From the NCBI GenBank assembly GCA_903928495.1, contig CAIYQZ010000059.1, positions 17,210-81,209 on the forward strand: DNA of 64,000 nucleotides, in the 5' to 3' direction. Both the position numbers and the translations under genes were made by a program. Below are positions 1 through 49,236 of this stretch, piece by piece; position 1 is the stretch's first letter, and every line of letters starts with the position of its first letter. The notes beneath the pieces are model-generated. The model saw only the letters and a list, made by a program, of their open reading frames with translations, was not told the DNA's origin and did no database searches. Source of the DNA: an uncultured bacterium. Its GTDB lineage: Bacteria > Pseudomonadota > Gammaproteobacteria > Burkholderiales > Burkholderiaceae_C.

Positions 1-94
<94 letters not shown>

Positions 95-96
95 TC

Positions 97-102
97 TATA
101 AT
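97..102 (+). promoter_or_regulatory. candidate -10 hexamer upstream of rpmB-rpmG
   Basis: Perfect TATAAT 3 nt after the trxB stop and about 100 nt upstream of the rpmB ATG. No convincing -35 was seen. Confidence 0.3.
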
Positions 103-203
103 GCTGGGTTTTCCAGGGTTACCGCCACCCTTTTTCATGGCGAGGTGAGGTTGTCATTCCTGGCCGTCAGGCCACGACAACCGTGTTTATCGGAGTGTCC
201 TTT

Positions 204-437
204 ATGGCACGCGTCTGCGATGTAACGGGCAAAAAGCCCATGGTGGGAAACAACGTTTCCCACGCCAACAACAAAACCAAGCGCCGCTTCCTGCCCAACC
301 TGCAATACCGCCGGTTCTGGGTTGAGAGCGAAAACCGTTGGGTGCGTTTGCGCGTGTCCAGCGCAGCCCTGCGCCTGATCGACAAAAACGGCATTGACGC
401 CGTGCTCGCAGACCTGCGCGCACGTGGCCAAGCCTGA
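204..437 (+). CDS. rpmB: 50S ribosomal protein L28
   Basis: [34 protein letters not shown]... is the canonical L28 sequence. ATG at 204 lies inside the 183..437 ORF. Confidence 0.95.
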
Positions 438-455
438 TACTGAAAGGAACCGATC

Positions 456-626
456 ATGGCAAGCAAAGGCGGACGCGAAAAAATCAAGCTGGAATCCACT
501 GCAGGTACCGGCCACTTCTACACCACGAACAAAAACAAGAAAACCACGCCTCAAAAGCTGGCTTTCATGAAGTTCGATCCCAAGGCTCGCAAACACGTCG
601 AGTACAAGGAAATCAAGCTGAAGTGA
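456..626 (+). CDS. rpmG: 50S ribosomal protein L33
   Basis: Own translation gives [56 protein letters not shown]. The gene is too short for the ORF track and sits directly after rpmB, as is usual. Confidence 0.95.
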
Positions 627-643
627 TTCACTTCGCCTGAAAC

Positions 644-676
644 AAAAAAGCCGCTGTGTCCCAGCGGCTTTTTTGT
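644..676. terminator. rho-independent terminator, potentially bidirectional
   Basis: AAAAAAGCCGCTG-tgtcc-CAGCGGCTTTTTT lies between convergent rpmG (stop 626) and the desaturase gene (stop 712). An A-run and a T-run flank the stem. Confidence 0.65.
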
Positions 677-711
677 TGCCGGCCGCCAAGTGCGGCCGGT
701 AGGGCAATCAC

Positions 712-1914
712 TCAGGACAGGCGCACAGCCCGAAGGGTGTACGAGAACTCCTTGAGAGCGGAAATACCGCTGTCTTCGGCGCGCTTGCACCAAGCCTGCA
801 GGTCTTTGGCCAGTTGCTCGCGGGTATGTGTCCGGCTGGACCACAACTGGCGCAGCTCTTCACGCATGGCGTACATCTTGTCCAGCACCGGATGCTCGGC
901 ACGGGCCAGCGCCAACTGCGGTCGCAGCACCGCAGGTACTTTTTCATCATCACGGTGAAGCCAGCGGCGGGCCACTTCCAGCGCCTGGATGTTGCCTTGG
1001 CCAGACCGTGCGGCCTGCAGCTCGGCCTTGCAGGCGCGGCGCATTTCCCGGGCAAAGGTGGCCATCACTTCATAACGGTTGGCAATGATGGCTTCGAGCG
1101 TCTGTTCGTCGGCCACGGGTTTGACCATGCCCAACACCATGTGCGGGCTGGTTTTGCGGACCTTGGCCAGGCCGGCCATTTCCAGACAGCGGATGTACAG
1201 CCAACCGATGTCGAACTCATAGGGCTTGACGGACAACTTGGCCGATGTGGGGTAGGTGTGGTGGTTGTTGTGCAGTTCTTCGCCACCAATCAGGATGCCC
1301 CAGGGAGACACGTTGGTGCTGGCATCGGCGGCCTCAAAGTTGCGGTAGCCCCAGTAGTGCCCCAGACCGTTGATGATGCCGGCGGCAGTGATGGGAATCC
1401 AGGCCATCTGCACAGCCCAGATGGACAGGCCGATGACCCCAAACAACGCCACGTTGATGACCAGCATCACAGCCACGCCCTCCCAGGAAAAGCGCGTGTA
1501 CAGGTTGCGCTCGATCCAGTCGTCTGGCGTGCCGTGGCCATAGCGTGCCAAGGTGTCGAGGTTTTTGGTCTCGGCGCGGTACAGCTCTGCGCCCTCGGTC
1601 AGCACTTTCTTGATGCCGAACACCACGGGGCTGTGTGGATCGCCTTCCTGTTCGCATTTGGCGTGGTGTTTGCGGTGAACCGCAGCCCATTCTTTGGTCA
1701 CCTGGCCGGTGGTGAGCCACAGCCAGAAACGGAAGAAGTGCGACGGGATGGCATGCAGTTCCAGCGACCTGTGCGCCTGATGACGGTGCAAAAAGATGGT
1801 CACACTGGCAATGGTGATGTGCGTCAGCGCCAGCGTGATCAGCACCACTTGCCACCAGGTGGTCTCAATCAGTCCATGGCCCAGCCATTGGATGGCTGCA
1901 TCAAAAAAACTCAT
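712..1914 (-). CDS. membrane fatty-acid (acyl-CoA/acyl-lipid) desaturase
   Basis: Three histidine boxes (HRHQAHRS, HRKHH, HNNHH) and N-terminal TM helices. 400 aa, ATG at 1914. Confidence 0.85.
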   Translation of the reverse strand: MSFFDAAIQWLGHGLIETTWWQVVLITLALTHITIASVTIFLHRHQAHRSLELHAIPSHFFRFWLWLTTGQVTKEWAAVHRKHHAKCEQEGDPHSPVVFGIKKVLTEGAELYRAETKNLDTLARYGHGTPDDWIERNLYTRFSWEGVAVMLVINVALFGVIGLSIWAVQMAWIPITAAGIINGLGHYWGYRNFEAADASTNVSPWGILIGGEELHNNHHTYPTSAKLSVKPYEFDIGWLYIRCLEMAGLAKVRKTSPHMVLGMVKPVADEQTLEAIIANRYEVMATFAREMRRACKAELQAARSGQGNIQALEVARRWLHRDDEKVPAVLRPQLALARAEHPVLDKMYAMREELRQLWSSRTHTREQLAKDLQAWCKRAEDSGISALKEFSYTLRAVRLS

Positions 1915-1941
1915 GCTCGACTTTCAACAGGGGAAGAACCG

Positions 1942-1986
1942 GAGAGCGCCTCACCGGGGGTGCGCGATTTTAGGCGCGGCGCTCTC
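1942..1986 (-). other. GC-rich stem-loop between the rsmB-like stop and the desaturase start
   Basis: GAGAGCGCC (1942-1950) pairs with GGCGCTCTC (1978-1986), with an inner GCGC/GCGC pairing. No U-run. It may be a terminator, attenuator or processing structure. Confidence 0.3.
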
Positions 1987-2006
1987 AAAATACCAGCACC
2001 CGCAGC

Positions 2007-3308
2007 TCAGGATTTGCGCTGCCAGACAGCGGCAAAAAATCCATCGGTGTCGTGACGGTGAGGCCACATGCGAAGGTAGGGCCCACTGCACAGATGGGCC
2101 GCTGCATCGGCCGGTGTGCGCCCGCCCGCAGGTGCCTCAGACGCTTCCTGGCCCAGCAAACGCTCCAGCAGGCCGGGCACCGGCAGCAACTCAAAGTCAG
2201 GGTGCGCGGCAGAGAACGCCTCGGCAACAGCCTCGTTTTCTTCCGGCAACACGCTGCAGGTCGCGTACACCAACCGGCCACCGGCTTTCACCAGCCGCTG
2301 CGCACTGGCCAGGATGGCGGTTTGTTTGGCTTGCAGCTCCAGCACACCTGCGGCGGTTTGGCGCCACTTCAAGTCGGGGTTGCGGCGCAGGGTGCCCAAG
2401 CCCGAGCAGGGCGCGTCCACCAGCACGCGGTCCATCTTGCCCGCCAGGCGTTTGATGCGCTCGTCGCGCTCGTGAGCGATGGCCACCGGGTGCACATTGG
2501 ACAGGCCGCTGCGGGCCAGCCGGGGCTTCAAGGCATCGAGCCGGTGGGCCGACACATCGAACGCGTACAGCCGCCCGGTGTTGCGCATGGTGGCGCCAAT
2601 GGCCAGGGTTTTGCCGCCTGCGCCCGCGCAGAAATCGGCCACCATTTCGCTGCGCTTGGCTTCCAGCAACCAGGCCAGCAGTTGCGAGCCTTCGTCTTGC
2701 ACTTCCAGCTCGCCGCTGATGAATGCGGGCAGCTTGTTGATGGCGGGTTTGCCCTGCAACCGAATGCCCCAGGGCGAATATGGCGTGGGCGCACCCTCCA
2801 TAGCAAACTTTTTAAGCTGATCAAGCGCTACAGGCCGTTTTTGCTTGTAAATGTTCACGCGCAAGTCCAACCCGGCAGGCTCGTTCATGCTGCGGGCCAG
2901 CGCTTCAAACTCGTCGCCCACCTGCGCTTTGAGCGGGGCCACCAACCAGTCGGGCAAGTTGTGGCGGTGGTGGGCCATCAGCTCGTCTGGCCGCACGCGG
3001 GCAGTGCCGTCCAGCCACAAGCATTCCTGCTCGTTCAGGGCAGACTTGATGAAATTGCGGTCGCCATGAAAACCCAAAATGGCCAGGCGGCGCTCGCGCG
3101 GGCCAGAGCCTGATCGGGCCAGATGCTCAAACAGCAGCTTCTGCCGCAACACGGCGTACGTGGTTTCAGCCAGGGTGTTGCGCTCGCGCGGGCCGAGGTT
3201 GCGGTTCTCACGAAAGAAACGGGACACCACGGCAGCGGCCGGGTGGTCAAACTTCAATACCAGTTGCACCAGGGCGGTGCAGGCGTCTAACAGGGCTTTG
3301 GGGTGCAT
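2007..3308 (-). CDS. RsmB/Sun (NOL1/NOP2) family RNA m5C methyltransferase
   Basis: NusB-like N-terminus, SAM motif DFCAGAGGKT, catalytic DAPCSGLGTLRRNPD and ATCS motifs. ATG at 3308 is preferred over the GTG at 3329. Confidence 0.8.
   Translation of the reverse strand: MHPKALLDACTALVQLVLKFDHPAAAVVSRFFRENRNLGPRERNTLAETTYAVLRQKLLFEHLARSGSGPRERRLAILGFHGDRNFIKSALNEQECLWLDGTARVRPDELMAHHRHNLPDWLVAPLKAQVGDEFEALARSMNEPAGLDLRVNIYKQKRPVALDQLKKFAMEGAPTPYSPWGIRLQGKPAINKLPAFISGELEVQDEGSQLLAWLLEAKRSEMVADFCAGAGGKTLAIGATMRNTGRLYAFDVSAHRLDALKPRLARSGLSNVHPVAIAHERDERIKRLAGKMDRVLVDAPCSGLGTLRRNPDLKWRQTAAGVLELQAKQTAILASAQRLVKAGGRLVYATCSVLPEENEAVAEAFSAAHPDFELLPVPGLLERLLGQEASEAPAGGRTPADAAAHLCSGPYLRMWPHRHDTDGFFAAVWQRKS
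2800..2842 (+). repeat. 42-bp motif copy A (inside the rsmB-like CDS)
   Basis: ATAGCAAactttttaagctgATCAAGCGCTACAGGCcgTTTTT. Read on the gene strand it encodes KRPVALDQLKKFAME. Confidence 0.7.
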
Positions 3309-3376
3309 GGAGCAGATTGTCCCATGCACCCCGTGCCGTCGGTGGCCACAAACCGGTGCGGGATAATCTCGCCCCT

Positions 3377-4996
3377 ATGTCAGACATCTCCACCCAGGTG
3401 CGCCGCCGCCGCACCTTTGCCATCATCTCCCACCCCGACGCCGGTAAAACCACCCTCACCGAGAAGCTGCTGCTGTTCTCGGGCGCCATCAACATCGCCG
3501 GATCGGTCAAGGCCCGCAAGGCCGCCCGCCACGCCACCTCCGACTGGATGGAGATTGAAAAGCAGCGCGGCATTTCGGTGGCGTCCAGCGTGATGCAGAT
3601 GGAATACCGCGACTGTGTCATCAACCTGCTCGACACCCCCGGGCACCAGGACTTCAGCGAGGACACCTACCGCGTGCTGACCGCCGTGGACGCCGCGCTG
3701 ATGGTGATTGACGCGGCCAACGGCGTGGAGCCCCAAACCCGTCGACTGCTGCAGGTCTGCCGAGCCCGCAACACCCCCATCCTGACCTTTGTGAACAAGA
3801 TGGACCGCGAGGTGCAGGCCCCGCTGGACGTGATGGACGAAATCGAACGCGAGCTGGGCATGACCGTGGTGCCGTTCACGTGGCCCGTGGGCATGGGCAA
3901 ACAGTTCCACGGCGTGTACGACCGTCGCACCGACCAGATGCGCGTATTTGCCGCCGGTGAGGACCGCGCAGGTGGCGACGAAGACGTGTTGTCCGGGCTG
4001 GACAACGCTGACACCGCCAGCCGCTTTGGCATGGAATGGACCCAGGCCAAAGACGAAATGGAGCTGGTGGAAGGCGCATCACCTGCCTTCGATGAAGCAG
4101 AGTTTCTGGCTGGGCGCCAGACGCCCATGCTGTTCGGTTCGGCCATCAACAACTTCGGCGTGCGCGAGGTGCTGGACGCGCTGGTGGACCTGGCCCCACC
4201 GCCCGGCCCCAAGCCGTCCATCCAGCGCGTGGTGCAGCCAGTGGAGCCCAAGTTCACGGGCGTGGTGTTCAAAATTCAGGCCAACATGGACCCCGCCCAC
4301 CGCGACCGCATTGCCTTTGTGCGTGTGGCCAGCGGCAAGTTCGAGCGCGGCATGCCCCTGAAGGTGGTGCGCAGCGGCAAGGTGATCAAACCCAACACGG
4401 TGGTCACCTTCATGAGCCAGCGGCGCGAGTTGCTGGACGAAGCCTTTGCCGGCGACATCATCGGCATTCCCAACCACGGCGTGCTGCAGCTGGGCGACAC
4501 GCTGACCGAGGGTGAGCAACTCCAGTTCACCGGCCTGCCCTTCTTTGCGCCCGAAATCATCCGCAGCGTGGAAGTGGCCGACCCGCTGCGCGGCAAGCAG
4601 CTGAAGGCGGGCCTGACGCAGCTGGGCGAAGAAGGCGCCATCCAAGTCTTCCGCCCCATCGCAGGCAGCGTGCTGATGCTGGGTGCCGTGGGGCAACTGC
4701 AGTTTGAAGTGGTAGCGCACCGGCTAGAAGCCGAATACGGCGTGAAAGCCCGCATCACCGGCAGTCCGTACCAAGTGGCCCGCTGGGTGACCTGCGCGCC
4801 CGAAGACGGCGGCGAGCAGGAGCTGAAACGCTTCATTGACGCCAACCAGCACCGCGTGGCCTTGGACGCCGTGGACGCCCCCACCCTGCTGGTGGACCAC
4901 AGCGCCACCCTGCGCGCGGTGGAAACCAGCTGGCCCAAAATCAAGTTCCACGCAATGCGCGAGCATGCGGGGCTGGTGTTCCACAAGGCGATGTGA
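3377..4996 (+). CDS. prfC: peptide chain release factor 3
   Basis: MSDISTQVRRRRTFAIISHPDAGKTTLTEKLLLF... has the GTPase G1-G4 motifs and full-length RF3 similarity. ATG at 3377. Confidence 0.95.
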   Translation: MSDISTQVRRRRTFAIISHPDAGKTTLTEKLLLFSGAINIAGSVKARKAARHATSDWMEIEKQRGISVASSVMQMEYRDCVINLLDTPGHQDFSEDTYRVLTAVDAALMVIDAANGVEPQTRRLLQVCRARNTPILTFVNKMDREVQAPLDVMDEIERELGMTVVPFTWPVGMGKQFHGVYDRRTDQMRVFAAGEDRAGGDEDVLSGLDNADTASRFGMEWTQAKDEMELVEGASPAFDEAEFLAGRQTPMLFGSAINNFGVREVLDALVDLAPPPGPKPSIQRVVQPVEPKFTGVVFKIQANMDPAHRDRIAFVRVASGKFERGMPLKVVRSGKVIKPNTVVTFMSQRRELLDEAFAGDIIGIPNHGVLQLGDTLTEGEQLQFTGLPFFAPEIIRSVEVADPLRGKQLKAGLTQLGEEGAIQVFRPIAGSVLMLGAVGQLQFEVVAHRLEAEYGVKARITGSPYQVARWVTCAPEDGGEQELKRFIDANQHRVALDAVDAPTLLVDHSATLRAVETSWPKIKFHAMREHAGLVFHKAM

Positions 4997-5060
4997 GCGC
5001 CTGCCCCGGGGCGCTACAGTGTGTGCCGTTGTTTATTTTGTCCAAACGGAGGTTCTGTCC

Positions 5061-5300
5061 ATGATCCCTGAAACCATCATGAGCCTGCAGCACAGCGAAT
5101 CGGTGGTGGCCCAGATGGCCGCCACGGTGTTTGTGGGTCTGGCCCAGCAACGGGGTTTGAACGCAGACAACCAGCAGGCGCTGGTGGAGCAAGCGGTGGA
5201 GATCGCCATTCAACTGGCCGAGCGGGCAGAGAAGCGGGTGAAAAGCGATGAAGAATGGGCCGCCCGCCGTGACGCCCTGGCAGCCGGCAGGTCTCGCTGA
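5061..5300 (+). CDS. small hypothetical protein (79 aa)
   Basis: ATG at 5061 is preceded by AACGGAGG at good spacing. No family recognised. Confidence 0.45.
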   Translation: MIPETIMSLQHSESVVAQMAATVFVGLAQQRGLNADNQQALVEQAVEIAIQLAERAEKRVKSDEEWAARRDALAAGRSR

Positions 5301-5331
5301 CCCCGACAGGGCCCGCGCACGGCGCTGACGC

Positions 5332-6081
5332 ATGACACCCACCGCCGACACCCTGCGCAACCACTTGGTCGAAGTGGAGCGGCTGCGTCAGGCGGCTTTT
5401 GACGCACCGGCCAACGTGCGCGCCGCGCTGGCGGGTGTGCGCAGCGTGCAGGTGCAGCGGTTTCACTTCACCTACGCCGACTTTCTGGCCAGCCCGCGCC
5501 ACGGGCAGGCCGCGCGGTTCTTTTTGAACGAACTGTACGGCAGCCACGACTACCGCCAACGCGACGCACAGTTCGCCCGAATTGCAGGGGCCATCGAACG
5601 TCTGTTCCCGGCCAAAGTCATGGCGCTGGCCGTGCAGCTGGCCGAGGTGCACGCCCTCACCGAAACGCTGGACTGGCAGCTGTCGCAGGCTTGGAGTGCA
5701 GTGCCCGGAGCCCCCCCCGACACCGCGGAGGAAACAGCGGGCCGCTACCTGGCCTGCTGGCGACAGGTGGGTCGGCCTGCCGACCGGGAACGCCAGTTAC
5801 AGGCTGTGATGGCGCTGGGTTGGCAACTGGCCGAGGTGGTGCGCATTCCGGGCCTTCGCATGGCGCTGCGCCTCATGCGCAAGCCCGCACACGCCGCCGG
5901 GCTGGCGGTGCTGCAAGAGGTACTCGAAAACGGCTTTGATGCGTTCACGTCCATGGGCCAGCCCGACGGCTTTTTGCACGAGGTGCACCCGCGGGAAAGC
6001 GACTGGATCGGCAGCTTTTTTGCGGCGGAGTTGCCCGGCATCACCCAACGCCTCGCAAGTGCCCTGAGCCCTGCCAACTGA
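5332..6081 (+). CDS. conserved hypothetical protein (249 aa)
   Basis: Long ORF with host-like codon usage. No motif recognised. Confidence 0.6.
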   Translation: MTPTADTLRNHLVEVERLRQAAFDAPANVRAALAGVRSVQVQRFHFTYADFLASPRHGQAARFFLNELYGSHDYRQRDAQFARIAGAIERLFPAKVMALAVQLAEVHALTETLDWQLSQAWSAVPGAPPDTAEETAGRYLACWRQVGRPADRERQLQAVMALGWQLAEVVRIPGLRMALRLMRKPAHAAGLAVLQEVLENGFDAFTSMGQPDGFLHEVHPRESDWIGSFFAAELPGITQRLASALSPAN

Positions 6082-6112
6082 GTGGTCGGCCCTGCGAGGG
6101 CGGGACCAGGAT

Positions 6113-6967
6113 TCAGCCCGCCACCACCCGCTGCGTTTGCACGCCCAAGCCTTCCACCCCCAGCCGCATGGTTTGCCCGGCGCGCAAATACACCGGGGGT
6201 TTGTGGCCCATGCCCACGCCGGGCGGGGTGCCAGTGGTGATGACATCGCCCGGCTGCAAGGTGGTGAAGCGGCTCAGGTAGCTGACCAGAAACGCCACGC
6301 CGTAAACCATGGTGGCGGTGCTGCCGTTTTGGCGCAGCTGGCCGTCCAACTCAAGCCACAGCTTCAGCGCCTGCGGGTTGGGCACTTCGTCGGCCGTCAC
6401 CAGCCAGGGGCCAATGGGGCCGAAGGTGTCAAAGCCTTTGCCCTTGTCCCAGGTGCCGGCGCGCTCCAATTGGTATTCGCGCTCGGACACGTCGTTCACC
6501 ACACAGTAGCCCGCCACGTGGTTCAGCGCATCGGCTTCGTCGATGTAGCGCCCGCCCTGGCCAATGACCACGCCCAGCTCCACTTCCCAATCGGTTTTCA
6601 CCGAACCACGGGGGAGTTGCACCGCGTCGTCGGGACCGCAGATGCAACTGGTCCATTTGGTGAACACCACTGGCTCGGGTGGCACGGCCATGCCCGCCTC
6701 GGCTGCGTGGTCGGCGTAATTCAGGCCAATGCCCAGGAACTTGCCCACCTGCCCCACACAGGCGCCCAGCCGCAGGTCCTGCTGCGGCACACCGGGCACC
6801 AGGGGCAGGCTGTCGATGTCCAGCGCCTTCAACCGGGCCAGGCTGGCGGGCAGCAGGGCGTCGCCGGCCAGGTCGGGCACCACGGCAGACAGGTCCCGCA
6901 CGCGGCCCTGTGCGTCGAGCACACCGGGTTTCTCTTGGCCTACCGGGCCGTAACGCAGCAATTTCAT
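6113..6967 (-). CDS. fumarylacetoacetate hydrolase (FAH) family protein
   Basis: MKLLRYGPVGQEKPGVLD..., GIGLNYADHAAE, EVELGVVIG and GDVITTGTPPGVG are typical FAH/2-keto-4-pentenoate hydratase-like motifs. ATG at 6967. Confidence 0.9.
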   Translation of the reverse strand: MKLLRYGPVGQEKPGVLDAQGRVRDLSAVVPDLAGDALLPASLARLKALDIDSLPLVPGVPQQDLRLGACVGQVGKFLGIGLNYADHAAEAGMAVPPEPVVFTKWTSCICGPDDAVQLPRGSVKTDWEVELGVVIGQGGRYIDEADALNHVAGYCVVNDVSEREYQLERAGTWDKGKGFDTFGPIGPWLVTADEVPNPQALKLWLELDGQLRQNGSTATMVYGVAFLVSYLSRFTTLQPGDVITTGTPPGVGMGHKPPVYLRAGQTMRLGVEGLGVQTQRVVAG

Positions 6968-6980
6968 GGCAATTTCCTTG

Positions 6981-7021
6981 TAGCTACAAACCAACACACA
7001 GCAAGCGATGCAGGCCAATTT
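6981..7021 (+). repeat. 42-bp motif copy B (intergenic, left flank of the Type III R-M island)
   Basis: TAGCTAcaaaccaacacacAGCAAGCGATGCAGGCcaATTT. It lies 13 nt from the FAH start codon and 19 nt from the res stop. Confidence 0.7.
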
Positions 7022-7039
7022 GGCCTTACATTTCTGCTG

Positions 7040-10030
7040 TCAGAATGGAGTGGGTACTAAGTGATCAATCAGTTGCGCTAACTGCTCGTGGTTGATTTTG
7101 GTCTCGTACTTCACTGGAACGCCTTGTGCCTGCAATGCGGCAAAAAACCGCCGTGCGCTTTGAATCTTCCACCGCTCGCGTTCGGGCACCTCTGCCTCGT
7201 TGTCGTAGCCTTTGGTCTCCACTACTAGGTAAAGCGCCTCGGTGGCACCAGCGCGGCGTATGACATAGCCAAAATCTGGGTTGTACTTGCCAGCCGGTGT
7301 GGGAATGTTGATTTTGGGCAGCTTGGCAAACACCGTAATGCAGTCGTGCTGGGATTCGTCCACGGTGTCGCGCTCAATTTGGCTGTCCACCGGCATCACG
7401 TTTTCAACGTACAGCGATTTGGCTCGCACCACCGCATTGCCTATCGTGTGCGCTTCTTTGCCGCACAAAGCCAGTGGGATGGTTTTCAGCAAGGTGCCGG
7501 TGTTGTCGGTCAACGCCGTTGTCGCCCGGATCTCCCGCAACTCGTAACTCACCCTGTTCACCAGCAATTCGTGCACGCTGCGCAAGATCAGGTCACGCAG
7601 TGTGAGCAACGCCCGGTTCTCGTTGTGCTGAATTTGCGCAAATTTATCGGTGGGCATTCGGGCCAATACGCCGCTGATGGTGTGAATGCTCAGCCGCGTT
7701 TGGTTGGCCAATTCCCGCACAAACCCTTGCAAACTCAACACCGCATGGGGCTTGACCGTGTAGCTGTTTTGCGTGCTTTTGACTTCATGAACGCTTTGCA
7801 CATCGCTGGTGCGCGTGATGCGAACAGACAGCGGGCGGACATCAAAACTTTGCGCAATTCGGTTCAGCACGCTTCGCATGAGCCCTTCCGTATCCAGCTC
7901 GTAACGCAGCACCGCATGGCGGTTCAGGTTTTCCCAAAGGTGGCGAAACTGCTGGTAACTGACCAAGTTGGGTGTGAGGTTGGCTTGGGTTTTGTGCTGC
8001 TTATTCTTGACTTGTCCTGCGCTGTCGTAGTAAGCGTCCAGATACGCCTGCATGTTGGCAGCGTTGTGCGGCTCAATGCCCGGTATGCGCAACATGTTGG
8101 CCAAAATGCTTGCCCGCTTGGCATGGTAGGTGTCCCGGCTCATCACAAGCGTGGCTTGTCCGGTCAAGTCATCCAGCTCCACCACATCCAATGCGGCTAA
8201 AGCGTCCAACACCCGGTTGGCCAGTCGTGTGCTCAAGGCCACGCCAGCTTCGGCCAACAACTTGTCGTCAAACACCCGCGCCACCCGCTTGACGCTGTGC
8301 TGCGCAATTTCGCCCTGAATGGCAGCCACAAAATCACCCTCGCTGGCGGGCACCACCACGGTCAGGTCATTGATTTCGTCAAACGCTGCATCGTCGGCCT
8401 GCACCCGCTCCAGTTGCTGGTTCACTGCCAGGCGCAGGCCACGGCCAATTTGTTGCAACTTGCTGATTTTGGAATTGCTGGGGGCCAGTTTACACAGCGT
8501 GAAAACATTGGGGTTGTCCCAGCCTTCTTGCAGTGCCCACATGGAAAAAATGAACCTCAAATCCGTCTCAAACGACAGCAGTTTTTCCTTCTCTTGCAAG
8601 ATCAACTTGATGGCTTCTTCTTCGCCCTTTTCGCTGTGCGAGCGGGCAAAGTAGCCTTTGTGCACCTTGCCAATGTCAGTTTGGGTGCGCTGCAAATATT
8701 CACGGTAACCCTCATCGAGCTCCGGCTTGCCCAGTGTTAGCGCCAGGTGGTGACGGTAATGGCGCTCAAACGCCTCGCGCACCACCGCAGACTGGGTTTT
8801 GCCCCCCGCAGTTGCAGGCAGGTATTTGCCCACCGCATCAATGAAAAACAGCGTCAGCGACTTGATGCCGCGCTTGAACAGCTCTTCCTCACGCTCAAAG
8901 TGGTTGGCCACAGCACGCTCGATGATGAGCGATTGCACCTCATCGGCCAGCATGCCGTAGGCCGTCGGTTCACCCAGGGGCAGTGCAAAACCGTTGGTGA
9001 ACAGCAGCTCTTTGGCAGTGATTTTTTCCACCACATGGCCACTTAAAAAATCAAGCCCGGTTTGCTGACCCAGGTTGTCTTTGGCTTGCAAGCTCACGCT
9101 CGAGGCTTGCCCAGCGAGCGTTTGGTGGCCCACACGGGCAGTGCGCTCTTTTGCGCTGCCCGTCACCTCATGCAGGCACAGCACCTGCGCGCTGTCATGC
9201 CCCGTGCCCACGGTGTCCACCGTGATGCCCTTGACCAGCCGCTGGCGAAAAGCCTCCAGGCTGTCCAGCGTGTAAACAAGGTTGCGGTACTCGTCTTTTT
9301 TGAAAGTGGCCCCAAACCGGATGGTCAGCAGCGGGTTGAACTTGGCCAAATACTCCTGTACCACCTTGCCCTCAAAACGGTGCGGCTCATCAATGACGAG
9401 CACGGGCCGAATGTGCGCCAGCGCTTCCATGTAGCTTTTGGCCCGGCCAAACAAGTTGGCCTCGACGCCGCGCTTGTTGATGAGCTTGCTGTCCCCGGCA
9501 AACGACTGGTAGGTGGCCACCATCACCGACAACCCCAGGTTGGCAGCACTGATGAAGCCCTTCACCGTTTTGTCTGAGTAATTGACAACGTTGATTTTCT
9601 GGTTGTTGTACTCGCGGGCAAAAAACGCCGCCGTGGTTTGCAGGCTTTTCAGAGTGCCTTGGCGAATGGCGTTGCTGGGCACCAGCACAATGAATTTGGA
9701 CAACCGGTGCTGCTGGTGCAGCTTGTGAATGGTTTCAATGAAGGTGAAGGTTTTGCCCGTGCCCGTTTCCATCAGCACGTCCACATTCAACGCTGGGGTC
9801 AGGCTGCTGGACACTTGCACTGACCCCGTGGTCACGCCATTGGCCTCACGCACACGTGCAATGTTGGCTTTCAGCGTGGCATGCGCTTCGGCCTGCGAAA
9901 ACGTGGGGTTGGCCTGCACATCGGTGGGCGGAGCAAACCGCACATCCGCAAACACATCGGCGATCGAGCGCACCGCTTGCGCTTGGTGCGCCAGGCGGGT
10001 GTATTGGAATTGGGGCAATGCCATGGTCAC
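7040..10030 (-). CDS. res: Type III restriction enzyme, Res subunit
   Basis: 996 aa. SF2 helicase motif I METGTGKTF, motif II VIDEPHRF, and C-terminal PD-(D/E)xK (NPDFGY...VVETKG). It overlaps the mod stop by 4 nt. Confidence 0.9.
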   Translation of the reverse strand: MTMALPQFQYTRLAHQAQAVRSIADVFADVRFAPPTDVQANPTFSQAEAHATLKANIARVREANGVTTGSVQVSSSLTPALNVDVLMETGTGKTFTFIETIHKLHQQHRLSKFIVLVPSNAIRQGTLKSLQTTAAFFAREYNNQKINVVNYSDKTVKGFISAANLGLSVMVATYQSFAGDSKLINKRGVEANLFGRAKSYMEALAHIRPVLVIDEPHRFEGKVVQEYLAKFNPLLTIRFGATFKKDEYRNLVYTLDSLEAFRQRLVKGITVDTVGTGHDSAQVLCLHEVTGSAKERTARVGHQTLAGQASSVSLQAKDNLGQQTGLDFLSGHVVEKITAKELLFTNGFALPLGEPTAYGMLADEVQSLIIERAVANHFEREEELFKRGIKSLTLFFIDAVGKYLPATAGGKTQSAVVREAFERHYRHHLALTLGKPELDEGYREYLQRTQTDIGKVHKGYFARSHSEKGEEEAIKLILQEKEKLLSFETDLRFIFSMWALQEGWDNPNVFTLCKLAPSNSKISKLQQIGRGLRLAVNQQLERVQADDAAFDEINDLTVVVPASEGDFVAAIQGEIAQHSVKRVARVFDDKLLAEAGVALSTRLANRVLDALAALDVVELDDLTGQATLVMSRDTYHAKRASILANMLRIPGIEPHNAANMQAYLDAYYDSAGQVKNKQHKTQANLTPNLVSYQQFRHLWENLNRHAVLRYELDTEGLMRSVLNRIAQSFDVRPLSVRITRTSDVQSVHEVKSTQNSYTVKPHAVLSLQGFVRELANQTRLSIHTISGVLARMPTDKFAQIQHNENRALLTLRDLILRSVHELLVNRVSYELREIRATTALTDNTGTLLKTIPLALCGKEAHTIGNAVVRAKSLYVENVMPVDSQIERDTVDESQHDCITVFAKLPKINIPTPAGKYNPDFGYVIRRAGATEALYLVVETKGYDNEAEVPERERWKIQSARRFFAALQAQGVPVKYETKINHEQLAQLIDHLVPTPF

Positions 10031-12171
10031 CCCCGCAAGCGCAGCTTGTCTTCAGAAAACCCCAGCGTTTCGGCCACGGTGTGGATGCCCAGAATGAAGT
10101 TGTCGTCATTCACCCACGGCGCATACACCGTGATGGCGCGCACGGGTTCTGCTTTTTCTTGCAAGCGGCGCACCGTGTCAGTCAGTTCATTCAGTGGCAA
10201 TGTGTGGAGCACCAAAAGCACGTCAGACAAGCGGTAGAGCACATTTTCTTTAATCATTTCAATCTGCGTGGTCAGCGGCAACCCCTCGGCCAGCAGCAGG
10301 TTGTACAGCACACGCGGCAGGTGGGCGGGCTGGGGCGTGGCAATGGCGGTTTGCAGGGCCAGCACATCGGCTTGGGTGGCATCGGCCAGGGGCTTTTGCA
10401 AAATGAGCGCATCAGGATCGTCCACCAGTTCAAACACGCGAAACCCTGTGTCCAGTGCCGGGGTGTCATTGGGCAGCAGACTACCCGCAGCTTGTACTTT
10501 GGCTGCTTGGTCGGCTTGCAGTCTGGCCCCAGCGCGGCGCAGGCGCTCGGCGGTGATTTCAAAAATGGTGGCTTCTGGTTTCCCCAAGGTTTGGGTGACG
10601 AAGCTGTGTGCTTCTTTCTGCTTTTTGGGGTCGATGGGCTGCGGGATTTGCACCAGGATGAACCGGCGCGTGCCGCCGTCTTCAGCGTTGAGCCGCATCA
10701 CGGCCTCGCCTGTGGTGCCGCTGCCGGCGAAGAAATCCAACGCAATCGCGCTGCTGTCGCCAGGGCTGGCGTAGCTCAACAGCCGGGCCACTTCATCCAC
10801 ATCTTTGGGGTTGTTGAAAACTTTTTTCCCCAGCAATTCACGCAAGTGGCGCACCGACACTTGCGATTGTTTGTAGAAATAGCTACCGCGCACTTGGGTG
10901 GCCAACTCATCGTCAGCCTCGTCGTCGCTATCAGCATCTTCGGGCATGCCCTCCATTTCTTGCGGCAGGGGGCGAATGTGGGCTTTGCGAAAAGGCGGCT
11001 CGGTGTGGTCGGCGCGGAAAGCCACCAGACCCAATTCAATTTGCCGCTGCATTTCTTCAACGGATGCGTAAATCCAGCCACGTTCAGGAACAGCACACGG
11101 TTTCAAGGTATCGGGGTGCACCACGTCGTACCGGGGGCCGCCACCACCGGGCCATGAAATGTCACGGTCACGCCAAGGCCCGTTGCCATCCACGCGCTTG
11201 TAGCGGCTCCACTTTTTGGCTGGGTGGGCTTTGGGCAGGCTGGCAAACCACTGTTGGAGGTCGGCCTCAATAGCGGTGTCGTTGCTGCCGTGGCGCTGAC
11301 GCAGCGTCAGGTATTGCTCCCAAATGTCGCGCGCGCCGGGCTTTTCTTCACGCCACAGCGTGTTTTCTGCACGCAGGTGGCTTTGCGCTTTGGCATACAC
11401 CAGCATGTATTCATGCCCGTTGGAGAAAAACTTGGCGTCGTTTTTCCGGCCTTTTTCCCAAATGAGGTTGGAAATGAAGTTTTCTTCCCCAAACACCTCA
11501 TCACACAGCAGCTTCAATTGCGCCTGCTCGTTGTCGTCAATGGAAATGAAGATCACCCCATCGTCACGCATCAGGTCTTTGGCCAGCAGCAGGCGCGGGT
11601 ACATGAACGACAGCCAGCCGCTGTGCGTGCGGGCACCGTGGATGTTTTTGATGTATTCAATGTTGTCTGCGCTGTAACCCAGGTGCGCCAGAACCTCGCC
11701 CTGTTTGGCCGTGAAGTCGTCGCGGTACACAAACGCATCGCTTTGGGTGTTGTAGGGCGGGTCGATGTAAATGAGCTTGACCTGCCCAAAGTAACTGTGG
11801 CGCAGCAGGCGCAGGGCATCGAGGTTGTCGCCCTTGATGAGCAGGTTGCCTGTGCTGTCCCAGTTTGTGCTTTGCTCGGGCGCAGGCTGCACAATTTTTT
11901 GCACCGGCACAAAGGCGCTGTGGTAGGCCTCGCGCTTGCCCACCCAGCGCAGCTCAAAGCCGTCTTCTTCCACCTGCACGCCCGCCGGGTTGGCCGGGTC
12001 GAGGGCCAGTTGCAGCAAGCTGGCGTTGATGCGGATGTGCCCTTGCGCATCCGTCTCAACCGCCTGGGGGAACAGTTGGCGCAGGGCTTCCAGCTTGTGT
12101 GCTGCAGGGGAGGGCATGTCCAGCAACGCCTTGTTGGCATGGCCCGCAGGGGCATCGGTGTGCAAACTCAT
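10027..12171 (-). CDS. mod: Type III R-M DNA methyltransferase, Mod subunit (N6-adenine, beta class)
   Basis: 714 aa. Motif [11 protein letters not shown] precedes motif [12 protein letters not shown], with a variable middle region consistent with a target recognition domain. Confidence 0.9.
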
Positions 12172-12184
12172 ATCAATATCCTTG

Positions 12185-12225
12185 TAGCTGTAAACGCTTA
12201 TTCATCAAGCGACAGAGGCCGTTTT
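12185..12225 (+). repeat. 42-bp motif copy C (intergenic, right flank of the Type III R-M island)
   Basis: TAGCTGtaaacgcttattcATCAAGCGACAGAGGCcgTTTT. It lies 13 nt from the mod start codon, in the same orientation as copy B. Inner hairpin CGCTT/AAGCG. Confidence 0.75.
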
Positions 12226-12236
12226 GGCTTAAAAAA

Positions 12237-12821
12237 TCAAGGCAACGCAGCCAGCAAGCGCTCCACCGCACGGGGGTACATGAGGTGCTCCTGCGTCAGC
12301 ACCCTGGCGGCAAGGGTTTGTGCCGTGTCGCCGGGCAGCACGGGCACCACCGCTTGGTCCAGTATCTGGCCGTGGTCCAGCTCCGGGGTGACACGGTGCA
12401 CGGTGGCACCGGCAAACTTGCAACCCTCGTCAATGGCCCGCTGGTGCGTGTTCAACCCGGTGAAGGCGGGCAACAGGCTGGGGTGGATGTTGACCAGCCG
12501 CCCGTCGTAATGCGCCACAAACCCTGGTGTGAGGATGCGCATGAACCCAGCCAGCACCACCAGCGCGGGGTCAAAACCATCGATTTCAGCCATCAGCGCC
12601 GCGTCAAACGCCTCGCGACTGGCAAAGGCTTTGTGGTCGACCACAGCAGTGGGAAGGCCATGGCTGCGGGCAAAGGCCAGACCGGCGGCATCGGCCTTGT
12701 TGCTCAGCACTGCGGCCACGCGGGCACCCACGCGTTGTGCCCATTGGCGTTGCTCGGCGGCGCGCACAAGGGCTTGCATGTTGGAGCCGCCGCCAGAGAT
12801 CAAAATGACGATGTTTTTCAT
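12237..12821 (-). CDS. purN: phosphoribosylglycinamide formyltransferase
   Basis: [18 protein letters not shown]..., HPSLLP and ATVHRV motifs. 194 aa. Confidence 0.95.
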
Positions 12822-12848
12822 GACCTGACCGAGTGTAATGACCCCCCT

Positions 12849-13532
12849 ATGAACGCCGCCTACTCCCCCGCCCTGCGCCCTTTGTCACCCGCCGAATCCC
12901 GCGTGCTGGGCACGCTGATGGAAAAAGCCCGCACCGTGCCCGACAGCTACCCCTTGTCGATGCAAGCCCTGCTGACCGGCTGCAACCAGAAAACCACCCG
13001 CGACCCAGTGATGAACCTGACCGAAGGCCAGGTGGCCGAGGCGTTGGATGAACTCAAAGCCCTGGCACTGGTGGTGGAGCAAAGCGGTGCCCGCGTGCCG
13101 CGCTACAGCCACAACTTTCAGCGCGTGGTGGGCGTGCCCGAGCAGGCCGCCGCCCTGCTGGGCCTCTTGATGCTGCGCGGCCCGCAAACCGCTGGCGAAC
13201 TGCGCATCAACAGCGAACGCTGGCACCGCTTTGCCGACATTTCGTCGGTGGATGCCTTTTTGGAAGAGCTGCAAGACCGCAGCACCGACAAAGGTGGCCC
13301 GCTGGTCGTCAAACTGCCCCGCGCGCCCGGCACCCGTGAACAGCGCTGGGCCCACCTGCTGTGCGGCGAGGTGGACCTGACGCAAACCCCCACCGGCCCG
13401 ACCAGCAGCGCGGCCACAGAGGACGAGGTGATCGCTCTCACCCGCCGCGTGGCCACGCTCGAAGAGCAAGTGGCCTCTCTGCAACGCACGCTTGCGCAGT
13501 TGTGCGAGCAACTGGGCGTCACCCCAAGCTGA
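12849..13532 (+). CDS. YceH-like DUF480 family protein
   Basis: [42 protein letters not shown] is the YceH/UPF0502 signature. ATG at 12849. Confidence 0.8.
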
Positions 13533-14851: not shown

Positions 14852-15979
14852 ATGGACTTCGATTTCTCCGACGACCAGGCGCAACTGGCCGATGCCGTGT
14901 CCCGCTGGGTGGACAAGGCCTACACCTTCGAGCGCCGCCGCGCCACCACCGCAGCGGGCGGTTTTGACCGCGCTGCCTACAACGAGCTGGCCGAACTGGG
15001 CCTGACCGGCCTGACCGTGCCTGAAGCACACGGCGGTTTGGGCATGGGGCCGGTCGACAGCATGGTGGTCATGCAGGCACTGGGCCAGGGTCTGGTACTC
15101 GAACCCCTGGCGCAAACCCTGGCCGCCAGCACCGTGCTGGCCCACACCGCTCCGGACGACGTGCAGGCGCAGTGGCTGCCGCGCATCGCCAGCGGCGAAG
15201 CGCTGGTGGTGCTGGCGCATCAGGAGCGCAAGGCCCGTTACCAATTGGGAATTTGTGAAGCAAAAGCGGCTCCAGCGCTTGATGGGTGGACAGTTTCAGC
15301 TATCAAACACATGGTTCCCGTGGGAGACCAGGCAGATGCCTGGCTGGTGCCCGCACGCATTGCAGACGCCTCAGGCGACCGCATGGCGTTGTTTCTGGTC
15401 GAGCGCACAGCCCCCGGTGTGATGGCCACAGGCCACGCCACGCAAGACGGTGGCCGTGCGGCCAATGTCACGCTCACCGATGCCCCGGCAACCCTCGTCA
15501 CCCGCAATGGCCTGGCCGCGCTGGAGCTGGCGGCTGATGTTTCCCTGGCAGCCCTGTGCGCGGAGGCCGTCGGCGTGATGGATAAAACCGTCGCGCTCAC
15601 CGTGGAGTACATGAACACCCGCAAACAGTTTGGTGTGGTCATTGCCAGCTTCCAGGCCCTGCGACACCGCGTGGCCGACATGAAGATGCAGTTGGAGCTT
15701 GCCCGCAGCATGAGCTACTACGCCACGCTCAAGATGGGTGCACCCGCCGCCGAGCGCAGCCTGGCGCTGTCACGCGCCAAGGTCCAACTGGGCCACAGCA
15801 TGCGTTTTGTGGGCCAACAGGCGGTGCAGTTGCATGGCGGCATGGGCGTGACCGATGAAATGCTGGTCAGCCACTGTTTCAAGCGCCTCACACAAATGGA
15901 AATGACCCTGGGTGACACACTGCACCACCTCGGTGTGGTGAGCGACAACATGCAGGAAACCGCAGGCGTCTTCGCCTGA
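14852..15979 (+). CDS. acyl-CoA dehydrogenase family protein (partner subunit type)
   Basis: MDFDFSDDQAQLADAV..., ACAD C-terminal helices (QLHGGMGVTDE). It is adjacent to and co-directional with the previous ACAD. Confidence 0.88.
   Translation: MDFDFSDDQAQLADAVSRWVDKAYTFERRRATTAAGGFDRAAYNELAELGLTGLTVPEAHGGLGMGPVDSMVVMQALGQGLVLEPLAQTLAASTVLAHTAPDDVQAQWLPRIASGEALVVLAHQERKARYQLGICEAKAAPALDGWTVSAIKHMVPVGDQADAWLVPARIADASGDRMALFLVERTAPGVMATGHATQDGGRAANVTLTDAPATLVTRNGLAALELAADVSLAALCAEAVGVMDKTVALTVEYMNTRKQFGVVIASFQALRHRVADMKMQLELARSMSYYATLKMGAPAAERSLALSRAKVQLGHSMRFVGQQAVQLHGGMGVTDEMLVSHCFKRLTQMEMTLGDTLHHLGVVSDNMQETAGVFA
15262..15304 (-). repeat. 42-bp motif copy I (inside the second ACAD CDS)
   Basis: The reverse strand reads GATAGCTGaaactgtccacccATCAAGCGCTGGAGCCgcTTTT. 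The gene strand encodes EAKAAPALDGWTVSAIK. Confidence 0.75.
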
Positions 15980-36060: not shown

Positions 36061-36990
36061 TCAGGCCTTGGCCCGGCTGACCCAGAACACGCCGCCCATC
36101 ACCAGCACCGTGCCCACCAGCACCCAACCGTTGAAGGGCTCGCCCAGCAGCAACACGCCCATGGTGATGGTGGACATGGGCCCGATCATGCCGGTCTGGG
36201 CGGTCAGGCCAGAGCCGATGCGCTCAATGGCCATCATCACCATCAGGACAGGTGCGGCGGTACAGGCCACGGCGTTGAGCACCGACAGCCACACCACCTC
36301 GGGCGCGACCAGCGCCGCCGACAGCGGGCGCAGCCACACAAACTGCCCGATGCACAGCACACAGGCCACCGTGGTGGCCAGGCCCACCAGGCGCAATGAG
36401 CCCAGCCGCTTGACCATTTCGCCGCTGTACAGCAGGTACACGGCATAACTCACTGCGCTGCCAAACACCAGGGCGCCGCCCAGCAGGGTGCCACTCGCGT
36501 CAAAGTTCACCTCGTGCCCAAACACCACCAACACACCGGCATAACTCAGCGCCATCGCTCCGGCTTGCCGGCCGGTGATGCGCCGCCCATACAGCGCCCA
36601 CCCCAGCACCAACACCAGCGTGGGGTTGAGGTACAGAATGAGCCGCTCCAGGCTGGCACTGATGTACTGCAGGCCCCAAAAGTCCAGAAAACTGGCGAGG
36701 TAGTAGCCACTGAAACCCAGGCCCAGCACGCCCAGCCAGTCTCGGCGGCTCAAGGCGGGTTGCCCCCGGCTGGCCCACCAGGCCATGGCCAGGAACATGG
36801 GCAGGGCAAACAGCATGCGGTACATCAGCAGGGTGACGGCATCCACTCCGTGCCGGAACGCCAGCTTGACGATGATGGCCTTGCCGCTGAACGCGATGGA
36901 ACCAGCGGCAGCCAGGGTCAGGCCCAGCAGTACTTTTTTTCTAGCTGCCAGTGCAATACCATCAAGCGCTGGAGGCACTTTTCTATCCAA
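36061..36990 (-). CDS. EamA/DMT family transporter
   Basis: Ten TM helices. The only available starts (TTG at 36990, GTG at 36978) lie at or inside motif copy F. Confidence 0.8.
   Translation of the reverse strand: MDRKVPPALDGIALAARKKVLLGLTLAAAGSIAFSGKAIIVKLAFRHGVDAVTLLMYRMLFALPMFLAMAWWASRGQPALSRRDWLGVLGLGFSGYYLASFLDFWGLQYISASLERLILYLNPTLVLVLGWALYGRRITGRQAGAMALSYAGVLVVFGHEVNFDASGTLLGGALVFGSAVSYAVYLLYSGEMVKRLGSLRLVGLATTVACVLCIGQFVWLRPLSAALVAPEVVWLSVLNAVACTAAPVLMVMMAIERIGSGLTAQTGMIGPMSTITMGVLLLGEPFNGWVLVGTVLVMGGVFWVSRAKA
36942..36982 (+). repeat. 42-bp motif copy F (forms the first ~15 codons of the EamA gene)
   Basis: TAGCTGccagtgcaataccATCAAGCGCTGGAGGCacTTTT. A 24-nt stretch (36959-36982) is identical to 46618-46641. 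It encodes DRKVPPALDGIALAARK. Confidence 0.85.
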
Positions 36991-49192: not shown

Positions 49193-49220
49193 TTTATAGC
49201 TACAAAGTATTGCCAATCAA
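49193..49220 (-). promoter_or_regulatory. candidate sigma70-type promoter for the MmeI-like operon (inside motif copy D)
   Basis: The minus strand reads TTGATT-16 nt-TATAAA, ending 17 nt before the ATG, with AGGGAG in between. Confidence 0.4.
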
Positions 49221-49236
49221 TCGACCCAAAGCAAAT
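49196..49236 (+). repeat. 42-bp motif copy D (intergenic, upstream of the MmeI-like gene)
   Basis: ATAGCTAcaaagtattgccAATCAATCGACCCAAAGCaa. The 5' half is well conserved and the 3' half degenerate. Confidence 0.55.

Follow-up and report, generated by a model that had tools for sequence, protein, structure and literature searches.

In a 64,000-nt stretch of DNA from an uncultured Burkholderiaceae_C bacterium (the window, to which all unlabelled coordinates refer), a Type III restriction-modification (R-M) operon, mod-res, lies between purN and a gene for an FAH-family hydrolase, with a copy of a 61-nt repeat at each of its two junctions. We find that mod-res of this bacterial family is flanked by sense-oriented copies of the repeat at two chromosomal sites, and that the association between repeat and operon is real and conserved. 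Our overall reading, to which we give a probability of about 55%, is that a pair of dispersed repeats flanks an old accessory R-M operon and acts as an intercistronic linker. The island and its borders, in the order in which they are transcribed, are as follows; L followed by a number labels the relative loci and contigs with which they were compared.

12821..12237, minus strand: purN (Pfam Formyl_trans_N), the conserved left flank of a variable interval.
12172..12232, minus strand: copy C of the 61-nt repeat, at the purN-mod junction, its AGCTAC block ending 12 nt before the mod ATG.
12171..10027, minus strand: mod, Type III DNA methyltransferase, 714 amino acids (aa) (Pfam N6_N4_Mtase PF01555, E=3.6e-30).
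10030..7040, minus strand: res, Type III restriction subunit, 996 aa (Pfam PF04851 ResIII and PF19778 RE_endonuc).
6968..7028, minus strand: copy B, a degenerate 61-nt repeat, at the res-FAH junction, its AGCTAC block ending 12 nt before the FAH ATG.
6967..6113, minus strand: FAH-family hydrolase (Pfam FAA_hydrolase), an accessory gene of the purN-prfC interval.

The mod and res genes are adjacent and co-oriented, with the mod stop overlapped 4 nt by res, and both their order and their Pfam domains are those of a Type III R-M system. The two copies nearly fill the intergenic spaces, which measure 65 nt between purN and mod (C) and 72 nt between res and FAH (B). An earlier note on this DNA had placed mod-res between purN and FAH with the two copies in the same orientation, and the gene layout confirms this; they lie 5204 nt apart, start to start. 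The note's observation that the likeness reaches the start-codon context with equal spacing also holds: the minus strand reads AGCTACAAGGAAATTGCC-ATG before FAH (B) and AGCTACAAGGATATTGAT-ATG before mod (C), with AGCTACAAGGAnATTGnn-ATG common to both, and the copies up to the start codon read TTAAGCCAAAACGGCCTCTGTCGCTTGATGAATAAGCGTTTACAGCTACAAGGATATTGAT-ATG (C) and TAAGGCCAAATTGGCCTGCATCGCTTGCTGTGTGTTGGTTTGTAGCTACAAGGAAATTGCC-ATG (B). Their identity, put at about two thirds, was measured as 45/64 ungapped matches including the ATG, or 72% over 67 nt by repeat search. The GC profile gives 0.55-0.60 over 6900-12000 vs 0.64-0.68 on either side, in agreement with the lower GC content noticed by eye. 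Neither an integrase nor a transposase or Y1 transposase domain was found with Pfam among the genes scanned between 2 and 15 kb, as the note had also stated.

Unrelated 61-nt pairs at 70% identity also arise in an all-against-all comparison of this GC-rich window, and the identity of B to C is therefore unconvincing on its own. These pairs, together with the low score of B, speak for a chance likeness of two AT-richer spacers in a GC-rich genome, an explanation that three observations make very improbable. The pattern common to B and C, TAGCTNNAAACNNNNANNCANCAAGCGA, has 3 matches in the window with up to 3 mismatches, whereas 0.00 are expected from 100 shuffles. Against an independent profile, made from copies in other genomes with the window copies and their close orthologs left out, both copies align in register: C scores 19.5 bits and B 5.4 bits, a value reached by 0/500 shuffles of its own 120-nt region. 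Finally, copies of the family stand at the same two junctions in every homologous locus. C is thus a clear member of the repeat family and B, judged by this profile, a degenerate one.

The family was defined from alignment A1, which takes in 46 of the 50 distinct matches at E<0.01 from a profile search of 2.5 Mb of loci. These 46 distinct copies come from many loci and span 61 columns, 45 of them without an internal gap; G43 and C44 are invariant, and conserved blocks lie on either side. The consensus, nnnnCAAATnGGCCTCTAGCCCnnGnnnnAnnnGCGCnAGCAGCTATnAAAAnAnTAGCAn, is made up of nnnnCAAATnGGCCTCTAGCCC, a variable stretch, GCGCnAGCAGCTAT and nAAAAnAnTAGCA. A typical copy begins with an A-rich start and GGCC, continues through an imperfect GC-rich palindrome to a near-invariant AGCT core (usually AGCTAY), ends in an A-rich tail, and fills the whole intergenic space between co-directional genes. 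Membership was taken as an ungapped fit to the 61 columns with AGCTAY at columns 42-47 and the 5′ block CAAAT.GGCC.C.AGC, a description that fits C and, in degenerate form, B. This comparison of sequences places B and C, as two diverged members, in an interspersed repeat family with a fixed length of ~61 nt that occurs in Rhodoferax/Polaromonas-like Comamonadaceae.

The same bracket recurs at a second chromosomal site. Mod has 5279 homologs, of which the nearest, at 75-95% identity, belong to metagenomes and metagenome-assembled genomes of Comamonadaceae; in the plasmid database, a close relative of the mod-res module was not found. Where Comamonadaceae homologs at 75-88% identity lie on long contigs (L171, L172, L174, L176, L177 and L178), mod-res stands immediately upstream of serB. 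Its left neighbour there is a VapBC/PIN toxin-antitoxin pair or a DUF1016 nuclease gene, with mfd further upstream in the Polaromonas-type loci L174, L176, L177 and L178 and other genes in the Rhodoferax-type loci L171 and L172. Every serB-site locus has one sense-oriented copy between the left neighbour and mod and another between res and serB. The window Res is 86% identical to that of L167 vs 64-69% to the serB-locus alleles, and the serB-locus copies carry a longer tail, CAAAACnnTAGTA.

In 157.7 kb of annotated relative loci, a sense-oriented copy is present at 16/16 mod-res junctions, which belong to eight loci, vs 9/114 other intergenic slots. Where a co-directional gene follows, AGCTAY lies 12-32 nt from its start, mostly 18-23, and the upstream stop codon falls shortly before the repeat or within its first third; in loci of the L081, L171 and L172 type, the repeat encodes the last five to nine codons of res. 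The earlier note had staked its reading on two expectations, that a related purN-FAH junction free of R-M genes would keep one copy of the motif and that the cassette elsewhere would be linked to it. The first is borne out by L089 (described below) and the second by the serB loci, which have a copy at both ends in every locus examined; since neither of the contrary outcomes was found, the bracket geometry is a conserved property of the R-M module and no coincidence.

The motif is not specific to the island: the repeat is dispersed, with further copies in the window and in many relatives. There are 4-5 copies in the 64-kb window and ~26 in the 157.7 kb of relative loci, a density of ~1 per 6-13 kb in the loci seen. 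With the independent profile, copies E, F, C and D are recovered from the window at E-values of 1e-6 to 1e-4; the three copies away from the island are listed here.

36926-36986, minus strand: copy E, overlapping the 5′ end of an EamA transporter gene; the best window match of the profile (E=1.1e-6).
46586-46646, minus strand: copy F, in frame inside an MmeI-family Type IIG R-M gene at 46311-49175 (E=4.9e-6).
15257-15317, plus strand: copy D, repeat-like, in frame inside an acyl-CoA dehydrogenase gene at 14852-15979 (E=1.1e-4).

Against these unlinked copies, B and C each have 36-42/61 matches and are no closer to each other (43/61). By comparison, C shares 49/61 positions with the copy upstream of mod in L167 (anchored over 61 nt), or 52 matches over a 64-nt alignment including the ATG. 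The tail ACAAGGAAATTG is common to that L167 copy, to C (with one mismatch) and to B.

We then compared the purN-prfC interval among relatives. In the window it is a variable interval at 4997..12236 that contains mod, res, FAH, a DUF8198 gene and a 79-aa open reading frame (ORF), with low GC in its R-M part.

5332-6081, plus strand: the DUF8198 gene, past FAH; the 79-aa ORF, prfC and a gene for an RsmB-type methyltransferase also lie beyond FAH.

A metagenome scan with PurN gave 80 loci. Here purN is followed directly by convergent prfC, with FAH missing (L088, L140), by RsmB (L090, L143 and others), by a membrane-protein gene and prfC (L095), by ~3 kb of uncharacterised sequence (L097), by a low-GC gene whose translation reads as DUF262-like (L087), or by FAH and prfC with no R-M genes (L089). 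Because the successors of purN differ so among relatives, FAH is itself accessory and purN-prfC is a variable region. A scan of the genome collection with the FAH protein returned a best match of 82% identity, with purN beside FAH in 0/80 loci, and FAH is a widely transferred accessory gene. Four loci, L167-L170, have the same order as the window (purN, copy, mod, res, copy, FAH), with Mod 93%, Res 86% and FAH 88% identical. The window and L167 are 86.4% identical over purN-C-mod-res and 83.2% over res-B-FAH; island and flanks have diverged alike, which gives the island the same age as the split of these lineages.

L089 is the R-M-free allele of this junction. Its purN is 94.6% identical to that of L167, and it is 91% identical to L168 from the FAH ATG onward; its purN-FAH spacer measures 207 nt vs 5.3 kb in the filled alleles and holds no mod-res. 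A single repeat-like copy stands directly before the FAH ATG. This solo copy has 43 matches with B, including the B-specific core CGCTTnCTGTGTGT, vs 37 with C. By this alignment, B is its full-length ortholog, with no hybrid junction, and is the resident copy of FAH. Between purN and the solo copy, L089 has ~150 nt that are not in the filled alleles, and its homology to L167 stops in the 3′ end of purN and resumes exactly at the FAH ATG, not inside the repeat. With the breaks outside the repeat and this extra sequence in L089, a simple target duplication is disfavoured; L089 may have come to lack R-M genes secondarily, by loss or replacement.

Another breakpoint is seen in L081, in which positions 1-11821 correspond to window positions 16848-7132. 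The two are 100% identical for 5.2 kb, from acyl-CoA dehydrogenase genes through ~570 nt of mod, and their PurN proteins are identical. Past that point L081 switches abruptly to a serB-type allele, with a Res 91% identical to that of L171 followed by serB and dsbA; a repeat copy, found with a wider family profile, lies after res. The breakpoint is inside mod, not in the repeat. L081 is either a recombinant with a crossover in mod or a MEGAHIT contig in which two mod paralogs were chimerically joined. It had been considered as an independent third context, with purN on the left and serB on the right, and was downgraded because of its identity to the window followed by an allele switch inside mod.

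These alleles bear on an alternative in which the repeat is a recombination site that moves mod-res. A circle with one copy would integrate Campbell-style into a resident copy, through RecA or a putative recombinase acting at the palindrome, and leave two copies in the same orientation, an outcome equivalent to 'insertion with long target duplication'. The single copy at the R-M-free purN-FAH junction of L089 and the bracket around all the mod-res loci seen, which occupy two chromosomal sites, are what it predicts, and some bracket pairs are nearly identical: in L172 the copies at 7937-7994 and 13049-13106 agree at 95% over 58 nt (55/61), and in L176 at 86% over 56 nt (50/61). A PIN_3 toxin gene and its 81-aa partner in L171 are likewise bracketed, by copies at 709-775 and 1586-1652 that are 91% identical over 67 nt and antisense to the genes. 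In the window, L167, L171 and L174, however, the bracket copies are no more alike than unlinked ones; B aligns with the L089 solo copy over its full length and shows no hybrid structure; L089 has its extra ~150 nt; the breakpoints seen lie outside the repeat; and the genes scanned near the island hold no integrase or transposase domain of the kinds named above.

The R-M-free serB junctions also weigh against a recombination site. In L180 (Polaromonas sp. OV174), mfd overlaps serB by 4 nt, with no R-M genes and no repeat at the junction. L181 has a VapBC pair between mfd and serB, a PIN-serB spacer of 23 nt without a repeat and, between mfd and the antitoxin gene, a single reversed copy. At the serB site, both bracket copies are thus present only together with R-M genes, which is not as target duplication predicts and fits a module that carries or acquires a repeat at each end. 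We consider a recombination site unlikely. The earlier note's proposal of a preferred integration or recombination site accordingly stands in part: the single copy in L089 and the bracket at a second site agree with it, and the breakpoints outside the repeat and the lack of a copy at empty serB sites do not.

Direct repeats around R-M complexes have been grouped into three classes, arising by site-specific recombination, by long target duplication, or by chance insertion between repeats (Furuta, Abe & Kobayashi 2010, PMC2853133). Type III cases are reported there, as is a 57/64-bp repeat around the Type IIG system of Acidovorax JS42, a Comamonadaceae, so that direct-repeat-flanked R-M units without mobility genes are documented, a further point for a recombination site; R-M insertion with long target duplication is the topic for which that paper cites Nobusato et al. 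2000. The window island resembles these cases in being a ~5 kb R-M unit with no integrase or transposase, with ~60-bp repeats in the same orientation and a single copy in an R-M-free relative. It differs from them in that its repeat is dispersed and multi-copy, the empty-site copy is orthologous to one copy only, and a second empty site has none. Measured by the criteria for long target duplication, R and M lie inside an insert shorter than 20 kb (5204 nt), whereas the repeat belongs to a dispersed family and high-copy repeats were excluded in PMC2853133. For the long-repeat (>30 bp) empty-site criterion, the L089 copy matches B better than C, and the L180 and L181 junctions lack a copy. A module consistently flanked by members of a dispersed repeat family can be filed as a variant of the known direct-repeat-flanked R-M units.

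The fixed placement of the repeat raises the further possibility of a portable expression signal, either a promoter with a ribosome-binding region or a 5′ untranslated regulatory RNA, that drives or tunes mod and the gene following res; the bracket would then exist because these two genes require one and the same signal. The orientation of the repeat to the downstream gene is fixed at all 16 R-M junctions, at the 12-32 nt from AGCTAY to the ATG given above. The window subfamily reads TTGATG, 16 nt, TAnnAn and then AAGGA before the ATG. Translation of serB is coupled to that of mfd in the insert-free state, and a repeat precedes serB whenever R-M genes are inserted. On the other hand, a sigma-70 promoter and terminator consensus scan of 6000-13000 yields not one promoter-like site and no terminator at B or C, where the -10 hexamer lacks its final T; TTGATG/TAnnAn is not conserved across the family, and the spacing would be ~22 nt in Polaromonas-type copies; and a -10 at TACAAG would start transcription about at the ATG and so bypass AAGGA. 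Nor does an RNA structure gain support from covariation, some copies lie inside ORFs, run antisense or stand where convergent genes end, and L181 expresses serB behind its toxin-antitoxin insert with no repeat. An expression signal appears rather improbable on this balance. The related suggestion in the earlier note, that mod captured a resident expression signal, gains weakly from the common tail ACAAGGAAATTG, which fits local gene conversion, and loses from the lack of a promoter consensus.

In the linker reading that we prefer, the Type III operon carries one sense-oriented copy per junction wherever it is located. The window operon is an accessory insertion, old and low in GC, within the variable purN-prfC interval; C is the copy linked to mod, and B is the copy resident at FAH, which is there whether or not R-M genes are. 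The start-codon contexts of mod and FAH probably match because the tail at the 3′ end of the repeat extends as far as the start codon. Some homogenisation of the two copies, which lie 5.2 kb apart, also seems to have occurred, as suggested by the tail ACAAGGAAATTG that they have in common; the closely similar bracket copies of L172 and L176 likewise point to homogenisation. The repeat would function as intercistronic punctuation, with a stem-loop at the upstream stop and an unstructured A-rich leader before the next start, and such a stop-to-start linker would make room for a foreign operon between host genes. The copies would incidentally provide ~60-bp patches of homology that support gene conversion and possibly the occasional excision or integration of the module. 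Presence/absence and allele differences now seen at this locus go back to breakpoints in flanking or conserved genes, a sign of ordinary homologous recombination and not of a site-specific event in the repeat.

Several results weigh against the linker reading. Rfam gives no match over the whole window at the gathering threshold and, in E-value mode at the B and C junctions, nothing relevant but a chance XIST match (E=3.1), and the promoter and terminator scan finds nothing at either copy. RNAalifold returns no consensus structure for the repeat. The named 9-bp stem pairs in 59.8% of cells vs 27-38% with the partner slid, but a column-preserving shuffle does as well (59.0%), which leaves no covariation. 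By its own score of 5.4 bits, B is a very weak member of the family. Some copies depart from the stop-to-start arrangement: they lie between convergent genes in L174, L176 and L180, run antisense at the L171 toxin-antitoxin pair and in L181, and fall inside ORFs in the window (D and F) and in L178. Lastly, the serB-locus cases probably represent one ancestral arrangement, which reduces the independent contexts to about two, not eight. A hairpin with compensatory changes, seen by eye as CTGT/ACAG in C vs CCA/TGG in F, had been entertained and was dropped, as the formal count yields nothing beyond column composition.

A more far-reaching version would make the repeat the recombination handle of an integrase-less cassette system of Comamonadaceae, in which copies in the same orientation delimit defence and toxin-antitoxin modules. 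Such a handle would cover Type III mod-res, VapBC/PIN pairs and possibly the MmeI-type gene; modules would be excised as circles and re-inserted at any resident copy, and the stop-to-start linker would keep the host genes expressed. We hold this to be doubtful.

The repeat also invites comparison with known small elements. Enterobacteria and pseudomonads have repetitive extragenic palindromes (REPs) and their mosaic arrays (BIMEs), among them GTAG-tagged REPs (PMC3733652). Like REPs, the 61-nt repeat is a short, GC-rich imperfect palindrome that is mostly extragenic, lies just after stops and between co-directional or convergent genes, and has a species-specific consensus. Unlike them, it has a fixed length and asymmetric ends (an A-rich start with GGCC; AGCTAY with an A-rich tail), occurs at low density and not in inverted pairs, and at R-M junctions is strictly oriented toward the downstream start. 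The GTAG/CGTC end of REPs is missing from the consensus, in which CAGCTAT reads ATAGCTG on the other strand, and only B and C read GTAGCT. The pairing counts and the RNAalifold result given above are the observations that bear on a REP-type stem-loop. No gene for a REP-associated tyrosine transposase (RAYT) turned up among the subset of window ORFs scanned against Pfam.

The Correia elements or NEMIS of Neisseria and similar miniature inverted-repeat transposable elements (MITEs) are small repeats at gene junctions; they may extend into gene ends, provide expression signals and lie at rearrangement points. The 61-nt repeat is likewise small, interspersed, located at gene junctions and overlapping gene ends, but it is much shorter and has no recognisable terminal inverted repeats or target-site duplication. 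Integron attC sites, which carry RYYYAAC/GTTRRRY core sites and work with an intI integrase and attI, offer another parallel. They share with the repeat an imperfect palindrome with conserved ends and a variable centre, a single orientation between accessory genes that include toxin-antitoxin and defence genes, and copies that are more alike within a genome than between genomes. In contrast to attC, the A1 consensus reads without RYYYAAC/GTTRRRY cores on either strand, the genes scanned around the island contain no integrase domain, the loci are not cassette arrays, and copies also lie between core genes.

The betaproteobacterial repeat element BRE (~90 bp, 69% GC, often tandem; Hot et al. 2011, PMC3110155) is likewise reported from Comamonadaceae (Polaromonas JS666, Rhodoferax, Acidovorax), and both repeats are usually intergenic and sometimes lie wholly inside coding sequence. 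BRE was rejected as the identity of the motif: the two differ in length and GC, and the BRE sequence-list supplement contains neither AGCTA nor GCGCTTG, which marks the 61-nt repeat as a separate element. A literature search with strings characteristic of the repeat found no relevant paper, and the family appears to be undescribed.

Some observations concern the sites that receive these modules. Both module sites are variable intervals between core genes, and the mfd-serB interval is seen as a 4-nt gene overlap (empty), with VapBC, or with DUF1016 and R-M genes. In relatives, unrelated genes are also often nested between mod and res: KilA-N in L081, an AAA_15 ATPase and a 188-aa ORF in L171, an SMC-like ATPase and SLFN/AlbA_2 in L174, and an NTase-HepT toxin-antitoxin pair in L177. 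The junction of mod and res has the look of a second hotspot at which defence-type cargo is inserted. In L172, the downstream bracket copy holds the last 30 nt of res, and the same 30 nt are noncoding upstream of mod.

Others concern the window copies inside or at the edge of genes. D, E and F have the exact 16-mer CTCCAGCGCTTGATGG in common and are all read in one frame, as ..P-A-L-D-G... Within the acyl-CoA dehydrogenase ORF, a conserved protein, D translates as AAPALDGWTVSAIK; a similarly placed sequence in L133 (7509-7565), ~2.4 kb from purN, scores against the family profile and has the typical tail CAGCTACTAAAAACATAGTA. The Pfam match of the EamA ORF begins at residue 22, and its sole in-frame upstream starts, TTG at 36990 and GTG a few codons on, lie just upstream of or inside E; copy E probably supplies the start codon and first residues of this protein. 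The minus-strand ORF at 46311-49175 encodes an MmeI-family Type IIG R-M enzyme that is full-length and has the complete set of five MmeI Pfam domains. Relative to MmeI (PDB 5HR4), it has a 12-aa in-frame insertion, NSVSKVPPALDG, between the target recognition domain and the C-terminal domain. This insertion coincides with the 5′ half of F, and the 3′ half of F lies over native sequence (KAQVAIETAA vs KQSKAIEEAA in MmeI). Site G, upstream of the MmeI gene at 49197-49223, was rejected as a family copy (-0.4 bits against the independent profile).

More degenerate sequences are found elsewhere in the window. Inside the RsmB-type ORF at 2007-3329, minus-strand positions 2816-2851 (2816-2844 in the pattern and repeat searches) are a partial match in coding sequence that reads VNIYKQKRPVALDQLKKF. 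Its identity to C is 81% over 32 nt, and its fit to the family profile is confined to the 5′ half (E=0.009); this match is probably the earlier note's 'copy A'. Two repeat-like sequences (GGCTTCAACGCTTATCTG...CCAGCTATCAATG) at 22950-22999 on the minus strand and 56077-56115 on the plus strand are 72% mutually complementary over 39 nt; the independent profile gives the former E=0.005.

R-M and toxin-antitoxin modules pass from genome to genome and from site to site, often without a recognisable mobility gene, and the account of how they do so is still largely descriptive ('long target duplication'). Here the same dispersed 61-nt repeat stands at both ends of a module with a fixed stop-to-start geometry, at two sites and in lineages about as divergent as genera. 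Should the repeat be no more than a REP-like passenger, such a bracket should not be taken for an att site or a fresh target duplication, and a repeat family has been documented. If it is a recombination substrate or an expression adaptor, it would offer a testable mechanism by which defence genes are spliced harmlessly between mfd and serB or between purN and prfC.

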